Shown here piece after piece: positions 2,538-39,176 of a DNA stretch of 64,000 nt. The notes beneath the pieces were generated by a model that saw only the letters and a program-made list of their open reading frames with translations, had not been told where the DNA came from and searched no databases. How positions within the stretch are numbered: the first letter of the stretch is position 1; the number at the start of each line of letters is the position of its first letter. Made by a program: the position numbers and the translations under genes. The DNA comes from Candidatus Saccharibacteria bacterium RIFCSPHIGHO2_12_FULL_41_12 (lineage in GTDB: Bacteria > Patescibacteriota > Saccharimonadia > Saccharimonadales > 2-12-FULL-41-12): NCBI GenBank assembly GCA_001790445.1, contig MGCQ01000001.1:40462-104461 (forward strand). The letters are read 5' to 3'.

Positions 2538-2654
2538 ATGCGTATAACGAATAAAGTAGACCGTATAACGGAAAATAAAATAATCTTGACACTTCGGAAT
2601 CCCGTACCACGTACTACTTTATACGTACTACAGCAACAGGAGGTTGCCCGATGA
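2538..2654 (+). repeat. Structured intergenic insert, copy 1 (117 nt; 38-codon mini-[41 protein letters not shown])
   Basis: Shares the CGTATAACG 5' arm, the TTATACGTACTAC 3' arm and the GCAAC-AGGAG-GTTGC hairpin with copies 2-5. ATG lies 1 nt after the rplB stop; TGA overlaps the rpsS ATG (ATGA). Confidence 0.8.
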
Positions 2655-2926
2655 GTAGATCACTGAAAAAAGGACCATTTATAGATCCAAAACTTGCAAA
2701 AAAGGTAGCTGCTCAGGTTAAAGATGACCGAACAGTAATAAGAACATGGGCACGATACTCTGCAATTTCACCTGAATTTGTCGGTAAAACTATAGCTGTT
2801 CATAATGGCAAAGTTCATGTTCCTGTGTTTATTACGGAAAACATGGTGGGGCATAAACTTGGTGAATTTGCTCCGACACGTAAATTCCGCAGTCACGGTG
2901 GCAAACTAGCGAAAGGTCAAAAATGA
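2651..2926 (+). CDS. rpsS: 30S ribosomal protein S19
   Basis: [10 protein letters not shown]...[27 protein letters not shown]. Confidence 0.96.
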
Positions 2927-3033
2927 GTATAACGAATAAAGTATACCGTATAACGGAAAAGGCTGAATTACTAGTTCAGCCCGTAATACGTAATACGAAC
3001 CCCGTACTACAGCAACAGGAGGTTGCTCGATGA
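2923..3033 (+). repeat. Structured intergenic insert, copy 2 (111 nt; 36-codon mini-[39 protein letters not shown])
   Basis: ATGA overlaps at both ends (rpsS stop and rplV start). Central hairpin GGCTGAA/TTCAGCC at 2961-2981. Confidence 0.8.
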
Positions 3034-4717: not shown

Positions 4718-5005
4718 ATGGCGAAAACATTAACCGGCACTGTGGTGTCAACTAAAGCAAATAAAACTATTGTAATTGAAGTACATGCACGAAAAACTCA
4801 CCCTATCTATAAAAAACAATACTCGGTTACCAATAGAATAATGGCTCACGACGAAAATAGTCAGGCAAAGATGGGCGACAAAGTCACTGTTGTAGAAATT
4901 CGTCCAATATCAAAGAACAAACACTTTGCTCTCAAAAATGTTCTGTCACATGCAGCACTTACAAAAGAGGACAAAGCAGTAATTGACCAAGAGGAGGTTG
5001 CTTAA
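4718..5005 (+). CDS. rpsQ: 30S ribosomal protein S17
   Basis: [22 protein letters not shown]. The ATG at 4718 has an AAGGAG upstream; the ORF-track start at 4697 lies inside rpmC. Confidence 0.92.
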
Positions 5006-5006
5006 G

Positions 5007-5375
5007 GTGATCCAACAAGAATCAAAACTTGGTGTTTGTGACAACAGCGGTGCAAAAGAGATACTTTGTATCCGTGTTCTTGGTGGCACCCGCAGACGTT
5101 ACGCTGGTGTTGGAGACATTATTGTGGCAACTGTTAAACAGGCAGCTCCAAATGGCACCGTCAAGAGAAAATCAGTCGTCAGAGCAGTTATTGTTCGGAC
5201 AAAGAACTCAATCAAGCGAAAAGACGGATCAGTTATTAAATTTGACGATAATGCTGCTGTGATTATTGGTGACGATAAACTGCCGCGAGGAACTCGTATT
5301 TTTGGCCCTGTACCTAGAGAATTAAGAGAAAAAGGTTTTGCAAAAATTGTTAGCCTTGCCCCGGAGGTACTATAA
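5007..5375 (+). CDS. rplN: 50S ribosomal protein L14
   Basis: GTG start gives (M)[16 protein letters not shown], the canonical L14 N-terminus. GAGGAGG SD at 4991-4997. Confidence 0.94.
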
Positions 5376-6959: not shown

Positions 6960-7070
6960 ATGAGTATAACGAATAACGTATACCGTATAACGGAAAAGGC
7001 TGGATTACTAGTTCAGTCCGTAATACGTAATACGAACCCCGTACTACTGCAACAGGAGGTTGCTCGATGA
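6960..7070 (+). repeat. Structured intergenic insert, copy 3 (111 nt; mini-ORF MSITNNVYRITEKAGLLVQSVIRNTNPVLLQQEVAR)
   Basis: Differs from copy 2 at only 4 positions. ATG lies 1 nt after the rpsH TAA; TGA overlaps the rplF ATG. Confidence 0.8.
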
Positions 7071-7968: not shown

Positions 7969-8628
7969 ATGGCTATAAATCAACCACAAAACAATCCAGA
8001 TTTACTAGCTGGAGAAAATCCGTACGAAGAAAAAGTAGTAAATATTGATCGTGTTGCCAGAGTCGTCAAAGGTGGTCGTCGCTTTAGGTTCCGCGCACTT
8101 GTTGTAGTGGGAGACAAAAAAGGTCAGGTTGGAATTGGAGTGTCAAAAGGAGCTGATGTAACCGCAGCAGTCACCAAAGCTACTCAAGTCGCAAAAAAGA
8201 ATATTCAAACTGTAACAATAGAAAACGGCACATTTCCTCATGAAGCGCAGGCTAAAGTTAGCGGAGCTAATATACTGATTATGCCTGCAAGTGCCGGTAC
8301 TGGTTTAATCGCCGGTGGTGTTGTTAGAGTAGTGCTTGAGGTTGCTGGTGTTCAAAACGCTCTTAGTAAGTCTCTGGGCTCCGCGAATAAGATTAACGTT
8401 GCCTATGCCACGCTAAAAGCGCTGATGTCTATCAAGCCAAAATCTGAATGGGTTAATCCTCCTCGTAAATTTGTTAAGACACCTGTTCAGGACAAACCAG
8501 AACCTAAGGTTGAGCCAAAACCAGAGATTAAACCTAAAGAAACGCCAAAGCCAAAAAAAGCTGCCACCAAAAACACTAAACCCAAGAAGCCCGCAGCCAA
8601 AAAGTCAACCTCAAAGGATAAAAAATAA
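7969..8628 (+). CDS. rpsE: 30S ribosomal protein S5, with Pro/Lys-rich C-terminal extension
   Basis: [36 protein letters not shown]. Start MAINQP at 7969. Confidence 0.94.
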
Positions 8629-8712
8629 TGAATCACGTTAGAATATTGACGACTTATCATATACTAGACATAAACGACTCTGACGTGGTTGGGAAGAAAG
8701 GATTCTAACGTG

Positions 8713-9243: not shown

Positions 9244-9585
9244 ATGAGTGAAAAAAGAATACGCGTGACAGAAGTTTCCTTTGACATTTTAGACATGTTA
9301 CTAAGAGGCAGAGATGATAAAAGCTTAAGTGAACTGGGCGCAGAAGTTTTTATTGTGGATGATCTGGAAGATGCATTTTTTTTGCCGAGAGGTGATGATA
9401 GAAGTGATTTAAGTTTGTTCTACAGCTGGTTTAACAAGCGAACAAACGGAGATACCGCATGGTTCGATCAGATTGCCACCCACCCCATACAATACGCATT
9501 TTCAGACTACGGACGAGAAGTTCTGGAACGATTCATGAAAAAAGACGCTCGGTTGCTAGGTGCTCAAGCCCTTGAAGCAGCATAA
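9244..9585 (+). CDS. Hypothetical acidic protein (113 aa) inserted between rplO and secY
   Basis: Only long ORF in the gap; AAGGA 8 nt upstream; no recognisable motif. Confidence 0.55.
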   Translation: MSEKRIRVTEVSFDILDMLLRGRDDKSLSELGAEVFIVDDLEDAFFLPRGDDRSDLSLFYSWFNKRTNGDTAWFDQIATHPIQYAFSDYGREVLERFMKKDARLLGAQALEAA

Positions 9586-11608: not shown

Positions 11609-11725
11609 ATGTGTATAACGAATAACGGGTGTCGTATATCGGAGAATCTTAAACACAAAGAAGTTTTTGCCGTAATACGTAATACGAGCTACGTAATACA
11701 GAAGCAGGAGGCTTCTCGTGGCTAG
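11609..11725 (+). repeat. Structured intergenic insert, copy 4 (117 nt; mini-[41 protein letters not shown])
   Basis: ATG lies 2 nt after the rpmJ TAA; TAG 11723-11725 overlaps the rpsM GTG 11718 by 8 nt. SD hairpin GAAGC-AGGAG-GCTTC covaries with the other copies. Confidence 0.75.
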
Positions 11726-14116: not shown

Positions 14117-14233
14117 ATGTGTATGACGTATAACGAAGAACGTATAACGGAATATTCAAAGCAGGTCGCTTCCGTAGCGACCTGGCGTGATACTTTATAC
14201 GTACTACTGCAACCAGAGGTTGCTCATGCATAG
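14117..14233 (+). repeat. Structured intergenic insert, copy 5 (117 nt; mini-ORF MCMTYNEERITEYSKQVASVATWRDTLYVLLQPEVAHA)
   Basis: ATG lies 1 nt after the rpoA TAA; TAG 14231-14233 overlaps the rplQ ATG 14226 by 8 nt. Central 9-bp hairpin at 14162-14184. Confidence 0.75.
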
Positions 14234-38979: not shown

Positions 38980-39082
38980 TACATGTTTTGTTACAATATT
39001 TGCATAGTTGCCAGAGACAGTAGCGGCTCGAAAGAGATTTAAGAATGCTACCTAGGTGTTAATCATTTAACGACTTCTAGAC

Positions 39083-39111
39083 TCTTGTTGGCACAAAACA
39101 AGAGTTTTTTT
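39083..39111 (+). terminator. Intrinsic terminator/attenuator in the rplJ leader (possible L10-leader element)
   Basis: CTCTTGTT-ggcaca-AACAAGAG followed by T7, 66 nt upstream of the rplJ ATG. Confidence 0.55.
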
Positions 39112-39176
39112 GTAGCAACTTTTCGGTAAATAACAGGTCGATTACCGGATATATTAACTAAAAAGGCAAAAAATCT

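Follow-up and report, generated by a model that had tools for sequence, protein, structure and literature searches.

A palindromic element carrying its own short reading frame and Shine-Dalgarno hairpin between ribosomal protein genes of a Saccharibacteria lineage

Coupling of translation between neighboring cistrons has been modeled as RNA unfolding or as re-initiation (reviewed in PMC12548453). In rpmI-rplT and the MS2 coat-lysis pair, the downstream ribosome-binding site (RBS) lies in a structure that is opened by the upstream ribosome, with the stop and start codons adjacent or overlapping (PMC12548453). At integron attC and attI sites, a structured hairpin that acts as a mobile site lies between co-transcribed genes, and a short open reading frame (ORF) entered from the upstream stop lets ribosomes melt the stem and re-initiate, the peptide itself being unimportant; such ORFs within attC hairpins have been proposed to relieve the structural barrier through termination-reinitiation (PMC8876359). 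Other repeated palindromes are known from bacterial transcripts. Rickettsia palindromic elements (RPEs) are polymorphic, multicopy palindromes of ~100-150 bp that are translatable in essential genes of a reduced genome, and the Correia (Neisseria) and ERIC (Yersinia) elements are repeated long imperfect hairpins in operon transcripts that can affect processing and expression (PMC10969869). Here we describe an element that shares features with all of these systems, located between ribosomal protein (r-protein) genes of Candidatus Saccharibacteria bacterium RIFCSPHIGHO2_12_FULL_41_12. The sequence analysed, referred to below as the window, is a 64,000-nt stretch of contig MGCQ01000001.1, the 5' portion of which carries the S10-spc-alpha r-protein operon on the + strand. 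The starting point was a hairpin with a Shine-Dalgarno (SD) sequence in its loop just before rpsM, which the original prediction treated as part of the leader of the downstream gene. It proved instead to be one part of an insertion that occurs in several copies and is missing from close relatives.

The SD hairpin forms the 3' module of a ~110-nt (107-116 nt) palindromic element with at least six insertions between r-protein genes. Five copies lie in the window, where a search with the element motif gave 5 matches (0 expected). A sixth, c0, on the same contig, was located with a covariance model of these five, with which ~81 kb of the genome was examined (Table 1). All six copies (84.6-129 bits) lie in r-protein operons and all are sense-oriented; the model found no further copy elsewhere in the window with filters off, or in the 10 kb past its 3' end. 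Three more copies were found in two other organisms, and all nine share the same parts, namely an ATG, a long hairpin, the SD hairpin and an overlapping stop. The ATG lies at -4 to +2 nt from the upstream stop, that is, either overlapping it or 1-2 nt past it. Next comes a ~90-nt imperfect hairpin whose 5' side is built of GUAUAACG-type 8-mers and whose 3' side is built of CGUAAUAC-type ones; A.A mismatches recur in it, its consensus has 20 pairs, and its z-scores range from -1.6 to -4.0 for the + strand and from -2.1 to -4.3 for the - strand. At the apex the sequence varies between copies and forms a hairpin of its own, GGCUGAA/UUCAGCC in copies 2 and 3, CAGGUCGCU/AGCGACCUG in copy 5 and c0, and CAGCUCGC/GCGAGCUG in L025, a metagenome contig. 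The mini-ORF that starts at the ATG ends on a stop that overlaps the downstream start by 4 (ATGA) or 8 nt in 9/9 copies. No Rfam family matches any copy at its gathering threshold. The sole match with E<=10 over a copy, Alpha_RBS, was rejected, as it reached 17.1 bits against a threshold of 38 and rests on the SD and the conserved rpsM codons. A role as internal promoter or terminator was likewise set aside, there being no consistent consensus matches on the + strand.

Table 1. Copies of the element, related hairpins and other features at r-protein and rRNA loci (positions in the window unless a contig handle is given)
Feature	Position	Strand	Junction or context	Frame	SD hairpin	Bits	Details
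Copy 1	2538..2654	+	rplB-rpsS	38 codons	2633-2647	121.9	TGA overlaps rpsS ATG (ATGA)
Copy 2	2923..3033	+	rpsS-rplV	36 codons	3012-3026	129	ATG overlaps rpsS TGA; hairpin 6 bp with flanking A:U; ATGA overlap with rplV
Copy 3	6960..7070	+	rpsH-rplF	36 codons	7049-7063	129.1	ATGA overlap with rplF
Copy 4	11609..11725	+	rpmJ-rpsM	38 codons	11701..11715	118.9	ATG 2 nt past rpmJ TAA; TAG stop overlaps rpsM GTG by 8 nt
Copy 4, extended stem	11687..11723	+					AGCUACG (11687-11693) pairs with CGUGGCU (11717-11723); -15.5 kcal/mol, z -2.9; only in copy 4
Copy 5	14117..14233	+	rpoA-rplQ	38 codons	14209-14223, GCAAC-CAGAG-GUUGC	97.2	6 bp with 3-nt loop possible; TAG overlaps rplQ ATG (14226) by 8 nt
c0	L003 782-898		rpsL-rpsG; same contig, ~6.6 kb upstream of the window	38 codons	GAAAC-CGGAG-GUUUC		Found by covariance model; TAG overlaps rpsG ATG by 8 nt; apical hairpin as in copy 5
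Related hairpin	L001 1666-1768	-	23S-5S spacer, just upstream of 5S rRNA	no open frame			
Related hairpin	L030 5431-5533	-	23S-5S spacer, just upstream of 5S rRNA	no open frame			
Weaker relative	L018 2496-2609	-	high-GC phage-like region	12 codons only	none	41-43	
Weaker relative	L023 2127-2240	+	high-GC phage-like region	12 codons only	none	41-43	
Weaker relative	L028 2852-2965	+	high-GC phage-like region	12 codons only	none	41-43	
Unrelated coupled ORF	L033 9702-10004		rplB-rpsS	100 aa			
Unrelated coupled ORF	L048 9603-10004		rplB-rpsS	133 aa			
Unrelated coupled ORF	L042 1915-2166		rpsL-rpsG	83 aa			
Unrelated coupled ORFs	L042 5129-5445		before tuf	67 aa + 37 aa			
ORF	9244-9585	+	rplO-secY	113 aa			No Pfam domain
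Three ORFs	L003 3478-4730		fusA-tuf	156, 86, 154 aa			No Pfam matches
ORF	L003 6793-7251		rpsJ-rplC	152 aa			No Pfam match
L10_leader (Rfam)	38993-39119	+	locus without element copy			51.1	Above gathering score
rpsE-rplO junction	8628-8689						rplO directly after rpsE, no rpmD (L30) between

Frame 0 of the element is open over 36-39 codons in 9/9 complete copies that differ in sequence, and 1-7 stops interrupt each of the other two frames. The frame is kept across six unrelated central segments, the chance of which we estimate at ~0.005 from stop-freeness alone and at ~2e-5 with frame-keeping lengths included. Apart from residues that the nucleotide repeat dictates, the encoded peptides show little conservation, and no Pfam family matched them, which fits a frame kept for the passage of ribosomes and not for its product. 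A concatenated query of five peptides scored nothing in a set of 5.8 billion proteins. The mini-ORFs are sometimes annotated as genes by public pipelines, and copy 2 is among those called by public gene callers. That all copies lie between an upstream stop and a downstream start, with a start and stop of their own, led us to reject membership in the RPEs, which insert in frame inside coding sequences, whereas the copies described here are separate coupled mini-cistrons.

In copy 4 the SD hairpin reads GAAGCAGGAGGCTTC, i.e. GAAGC-AGGAG-GCTTC; TC comes next, and rpsM begins with GTG at 11718. The exact 15-mer GCAACAGGAGGTTGC (GCAAC-AGGAG-GTTGC) occurs in copies 1-3 and GCAACCAGAGGTTGC (GCAAC-CAGAG-GTTGC) in copy 5, and the hairpin sequences originally described at five sites were all confirmed. 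Allowing <=3 mismatches, the 15-mer has 6 matches in the window against 1.19 expected, a number reached in 0/100 shuffles. Both c0 and the L025 copy, which belongs to a different organism and lies at rpsN-rpsH, have GAAAC-CGGAG-GUUUC. The start codon follows the stem after 2-3 nt (CCG or TCG and then ATG in copies 1-3, TC and GTG in copy 4, TC and ATG in copy 5) and not after 3-4 nt as first reported, and the spacing from GGAGG to the start measures 6-7 nt. Of the 55 SD-plus-start candidates in the window, the six whose folds most stably present the SD core in a hairpin loop include four copies of the repeat, and the other two, at 5124 and 8710, are inside longer ORFs and probably do not mark true starts. 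The SD hairpin is therefore peculiar to the element and no general habit of RBSs in the window. The SD that closes the unrelated 100-aa ORF inserted at rplB-rpsS in L033 is without such a hairpin.

Comparison with relatives reveals empty sites. L037 (GCA_964355265.1), whose S19 is 95% identical, has copies 2 and 3 and lacks copy 1; its rplB-rpsS junction reads GAGGAAGTAA-C-ATGAGTAGA (TAA-C-ATG), where the window has AGGAAGTAA followed by A-ATGCGT...GTTGCCCG-ATGAGTAGA. None of the sites is occupied in L033 to L036 (S19 93% identical), where the start codon is immediately preceded by the same upstream SD. With the element inserted between the two, the old SD passes to the element's own ATG, and a new SD is needed for the displaced gene. 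Both junctions of the element carry an ATG (GTG in copy 4), versus a single ATG in the empty sites, and the extra triplet could be a 3-bp duplication or the start codon of the element. The rpsN-rpsH junction that is occupied in L025, a contig of higher GC, is compact in the window. The central segment of copy 3 in L037 is unrelated to that of the window's copy 3 at the same junction, and copies 2 and 3 of the window are nearly identical, which together point to turnover or gene conversion between copies.

The element has a narrow distribution. It is absent from more distant Saccharibacteria (L041-44, L047-49), look-ups based on S19 in eight related lineages gave copies only in L037 and its fragments, and an exact L36 look-up returned identical strains only. 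A scan of viral contigs with the pattern gave no real copies. The same scan of metagenomes yielded L014, L025, three weak relatives in phage regions and simple tandem repeats, and that of genome contigs yielded only a relative in the rRNA spacer of L001. In L001 and L030, from another Saccharibacteria metagenome-assembled genome, this related long hairpin consists of (GTATAACG)x4 versus CGTGATAC-type repeats, corresponding to four units of the element's GUAUAACG type and their complement. Immediately after it stands a hairpin of 8 bp capped by a GGA triloop, GCGCUUCG-GGA-CGAAGCGC; in the covariance model this second hairpin aligns with the SD helix. The three phage-region relatives (L018, L023 and L028) consist of a CGTATA / GAAATACG repeat hairpin that separates an AAGGAG SD from the ATG start of an ORF of 255 aa, and their hairpin might bring the two into proximity in the manner of a split ribosome-binding site.

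Like a miniature inverted-repeat transposable element (MITE), the element is multicopy, forms an inverted-repeat hairpin without a transposase of its own and is polymorphic for presence and absence, its only coding capacity being the 36-39-aa peptide. The features of translational coupling are also present, as stop and start overlap and an SD stands ahead of the restart codon. At a probability of roughly 0.5, we favor the reading that these copies are non-autonomous, MITE-like insertions in sense orientation that bring their own coupling kit into the str, S10, spc and alpha operons of a narrow Saccharibacteria lineage. Insertion between the upstream stop, with the old SD, and the downstream start would break the link of the gene to its RBS as well as its coupling. 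Initiation at the AUG of the element, sitting where the old start was, would draw on the old SD or on the terminating ribosome, and the stop-free frame of 36-39 codons would let ribosomes translate through and melt the ~90-nt hairpin. At the far end, a new SD (GGAGG or GAGG) that occupies the loop of a hairpin of 5-6 bp and precedes the host start by 6-7 nt, together with a stop that overlaps this start, would allow ribosomes to terminate and re-initiate there. The short stem would insulate the SD, keeping the GGAG core single-stranded while the A/U-rich palindrome refolds behind the ribosome, and the SD so displayed may serve both re-initiating and free 30S subunits, the latter by de novo initiation. 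Such a mechanism mirrors the one proposed for short ORFs in attC hairpins (PMC8876359) and fits both the RNA-unfolding and the re-initiation model of coupling. We infer translation of the mini-ORF, the coupling itself and the insulating role of the stem from features of the sequence, in which the anatomy, the copy number, the empty sites of relatives, the open frame and the stem compensations are observed directly.

The part of this reading that concerns the short helix was evaluated by counting pairs in 11 distinct sequences. Helix positions are paired in 98.1% of cells, versus 88.3% when the 3' partners are shuffled (0/500 reach the observed value), and registers slid along the sequence give only 24-53%. 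The covariation score is 0.218 versus 0.066 in shuffles (0/500 reach it), a difference to be read with the 11 rows and 3 stem haplotypes behind it and with the fact that the control is blind to relatedness and can be beaten by related sequences having no structure. At stem pair 2, C:G is found in 7 sequences and A:U in 3 (copy 4, c0 and L025); at pair 4, A:U is found in 9 and G:C in 1 (copy 4), with one A.G mismatch. The compensated changes at these two pairs, on which the original prediction was built, are thus present, and c0 and L025 (GAAAC/GUUUC) strengthen the case. Hybrid stems that carry one side of a change without the other give no fold or a weak one (0 to -2.1 kcal/mol). The compensating changes turn CAA into AAG, GUU into GCU and GCU into UCU, and with them QQQEVAR of the mini-ORF into QKQEASR; since amino acids change with the stem, it is pairing and not the peptide that is conserved. 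L025, the most divergent copy (64 bits), retains a perfect stem and even extends it (UGAAAC/GUUUCA) in spite of diverged flanks. The short helix is probably selected, short of formal proof.

Several observations weigh against this reading. The stem is worth only -4.3 to -6.5 kcal/mol (-4.5 in copy 4, or -6.1 in a six-pair form that adds A11700:U11716), and local folds of 43 nt, with z-scores of -0.9 to +0.6, are no better than shuffled sequence in 5/6 copies, copy 4 being the exception; for these reasons the case for the helix rests on the at least two compensated substitutions. In ensembles of the full element the probability of the stem varies from 1.0 down to 0.07 in copy 4 and in copy 2 of L037. 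Only three stem haplotypes exist, arising from at least two events, which puts significance of the R-scape type out of reach. The earlier claim that covariation is evidence for a real helix therefore stands as regards the compensations and the 98.1% pairing, and falls short as regards the number of haplotypes and the weak energy, the compensated substitutions being too few to test formally. In one strain variant of copy 2 (L005 2633-2647, GCAAC-AGGAG-GGTGC-A), a stem pair is replaced by an A.G mismatch; the variant is found 40 nt from the end of its contig, a position prone to assembly errors, and may be such an error. In copies whose loop begins with C or U (copy 5, c0, L025 and copy 2 of L037), a sixth pair becomes possible, and the resulting 3-nt loop buries part of the SD and leaves only GGA or AGA open. 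The + and - strands fold equally well, and with 4 G.U versus 8 A.C the wobble pairs do not favor the + strand, so that the attempt to assign the RNA strand through them was dropped as uninformative. Changes on both sides of the stem could also stem from gene conversion or template switching in a DNA palindrome. The gene tables of the window and its flanks list no transposase, though no dedicated search was made, and no clear target-site duplication was identified. Finally, the untranslated L001 hairpin with its second, GGA-loop hairpin hints at a role beyond the display of an SD.

Whether the hairpin displays the SD or masks it was left as an alternative in the original prediction. In the predicted ensemble, the GGAG core is 80-100% unpaired in copies 1-3 and in copy 3 of L037, and predicted accessibility mostly favors display; sequence alone cannot decide the question, and copy 4 departs from the pattern. 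Its extended stem places the SD in the apical loop and buries the GUG start in the basal stem, and in the context of the whole element a U-rich tract, AGAAGUUUUUGC (11659-11670), competes for the SD. With its start buried and its SD contested, rpsM may depend most on unwinding by the mini-ORF ribosome, and copy 4 is the copy that best fits the pattern of rpmI-rplT and MS2. In those systems the stem hides the SD or the start codon, whereas the SD core of the element lies mostly in the loop and its stem is much weaker.

One rival explanation, which we consider unlikely, is that the short hairpin is a terminal structure of the DNA, or of the element, required for mobilizing or copying the palindrome, for instance a recombination site or a subterminal hairpin recognized by a single-strand transposase; the SD that it presents would then be secondary. 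The palindrome folding as well or better on the minus strand, wobble pairs that show no preference for the RNA strand, presence and absence among close relatives, copies that are more alike within a genome than between orthologous sites, the possible 3-bp duplication of ATG, and the untranslated rRNA-spacer relative that keeps a second hairpin in the same position are all consistent with it. It does not account for the loop-to-start spacing of 6-7 nt and the GGAG/GAGG loop content, both constant in every translated copy, nor for the phage-region relatives, in which the long hairpin occurs without the second one. The 9/9 distinct copies in sense orientation are as expected under selection at the level of mRNA, and neither a transposase nor an integrase was seen in the gene tables of the window or flanks, which were not searched specifically. 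An integron attC site in particular was rejected: GCAAC and GTTGC stand 5 nt apart and away from the element ends, GTTGCTC does not conform to GTTRRRY, and the core sites GTTRRRY / RYYYAAC are absent. The element also differs from attC in residing in a core r-protein operon and not in a cassette array, in an ORF that spans it entirely and ends on the downstream start, and in carrying its own SD in a dedicated hairpin.

It is about equally improbable that the element is primarily a site of RNA processing or regulation, either a duplex cleaved in the manner of RNase III, with the SD hairpin as 5' stabilizer and landing pad, or a binding site for a CsrA-like or ribosome-related protein. A duplex of ~30 bp with internal mismatches is predicted, all copies lie in r-protein operons and their relative in a 23S-5S spacer, which is a context of processing, and GGA occupies the short-stem loop in 8/9 copies and in L001. 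RNase III is known to cleave co-transcribed Correia elements (PMC10969869). Such a role does not account for the retention of a stop-free frame in 9/9 copies, or for its tight overlaps at start and stop, and translating ribosomes would keep the duplex melted. The RNase III sites of phage T7 are likewise intercistronic hairpins in operon transcripts; neither they nor Correia and ERIC elements are kept as open frames or supply a replacement SD hairpin, and cleavage is documented there, whereas the duplex of the element is only predicted. The likeness to CsrA/RsmE sites, where GGA is presented in a 3-5-nt loop of a short stem at the SD and repeated at several mRNA sites, ends at copy 5, whose loop CAGAG (AGA in the 6-bp form) has no GGA, and the flanking consensus (A/U)CANGGANG(U/A) is unmatched; because GGA is not present in all loops, a CsrA-type binding hairpin was rejected. 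No Rfam family was matched. A CsrA gene is, to our knowledge, not known in this lineage, and none was sought in this analysis.

Similarly small odds attach to the explanation that the 5-bp stem has no function and is an inherited inverted repeat around a strong SD, its compensations having arisen by conversion or template switch. The low stem energy, local z-scores near 0, the three haplotypes and the one pair-breaking variant listed above all speak for it. Set against them are the changes on both sides at two pairs, the lack of any one-sided intermediate in 9 distinct copies save L005, itself a variant close to a contig end, and the divergent L025, which keeps and extends the stem. That the element encodes a family of functional microproteins of 36-39 residues, for example ribosome-associated ones, with the RNA pairing as a by-product, is very improbable, because the always-open frame with its start and stop signals, the occasional gene calls and the recurrent N-terminal M-x-I-T and R-I-T-E motifs are offset by conserved residues that coincide with the nucleotide repeat GUAUAACG, a central third that is unrelated between copies, amino acid changes at many positions of orthologous copies (the stem compensations included), the lack of a Pfam match or scored homologue, and an rRNA-spacer relative that has no frame. 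The MITE-like insertion with its own coupling kit remains the reading we prefer.

A related SD context had also been noted at the end of rpsQ, where GAGGAGGTTGCT is indeed found at 4991-5002. The 3' end of rpsQ (4987-5010) reads CAAGAGGAGGTTGCTTAA and is followed by the GTG start of rplN; relatives have CAAGAAGAGGTTCAAGAATGA with an ATGA overlap. We rejected a decayed copy of the element at 4987-5005, since comparison with relatives identifies CAAGA(A/G)GAGGTT as part of the native coding sequence of S17 and the GCT-TAA-GG-GTG tail alone is specific to the window lineage. Nor can the 5-bp stem form, CCAAG/GUUGC allowing only 3 inner pairs, so that the sequence reported at rpsQ holds and its kinship to the hairpin mostly does not. 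The window lineage has gained a GTTGCT here that is identical to the 3' arm of the element, together with a switch to GTG as in rpsM after copy 4, and this GTTGCT could be a conversion tract, a footprint or a coincidence.

Other inserted cistrons were encountered at r-protein junctions. Unrelated coupled ORFs of unknown function occupy rplB-rpsS in L033 and L048, and further unrelated coupled ORFs lie at rpsL-rpsG and before tuf in L042. In the genome studied here, ORFs that have no Pfam match stand between rplO and secY, between fusA and tuf and between rpsJ and rplC (Table 1); for the 113-aa ORF between rplO and secY, no homologue outside the species was found among 5.8 billion proteins. The r-protein junctions look like hot spots for inserted cistrons. 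Elsewhere in the window, an L10 leader was matched, and rpmD is missing between rpsE and rplO, which fits the loss of L30 reported for bacteria of the Candidate Phyla Radiation (CPR).

A full-text search of the literature found no description of such an element, and its combination of a separate coupled mini-cistron with its own SD hairpin in CPR r-protein operons appears to be new. As a tentative proposal, which we hold with well under even confidence, it may represent a new class of selfish intercistronic element that targets the gap between the stop or SD and the start in highly expressed operons and is rendered harmless by a complete coupling cassette, which would give it a route into even the best-conserved operons of a reduced CPR genome; the core of long GUAUAACG-repeat duplex and short GGA-loop hairpin, shared with the rRNA spacer of another Saccharibacterium, would then suggest recognition by a factor of ribosome biogenesis or RNA processing. 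The r-protein operons depend on tight translational coupling for stoichiometry, and the presence of six copies in such compact and conserved operons of a very small genome suggests that these loci can be invaded if coupling is preserved. The six junctions, together with the empty sites of sister genomes, offer a natural test bed for the RNA-unfolding and re-initiation models and for initiation at an SD in a loop. The element would also explain the recurrent 'hypothetical proteins' of 36-38 aa and the ~110-nt gaps in the r-protein operons of Saccharibacteria.

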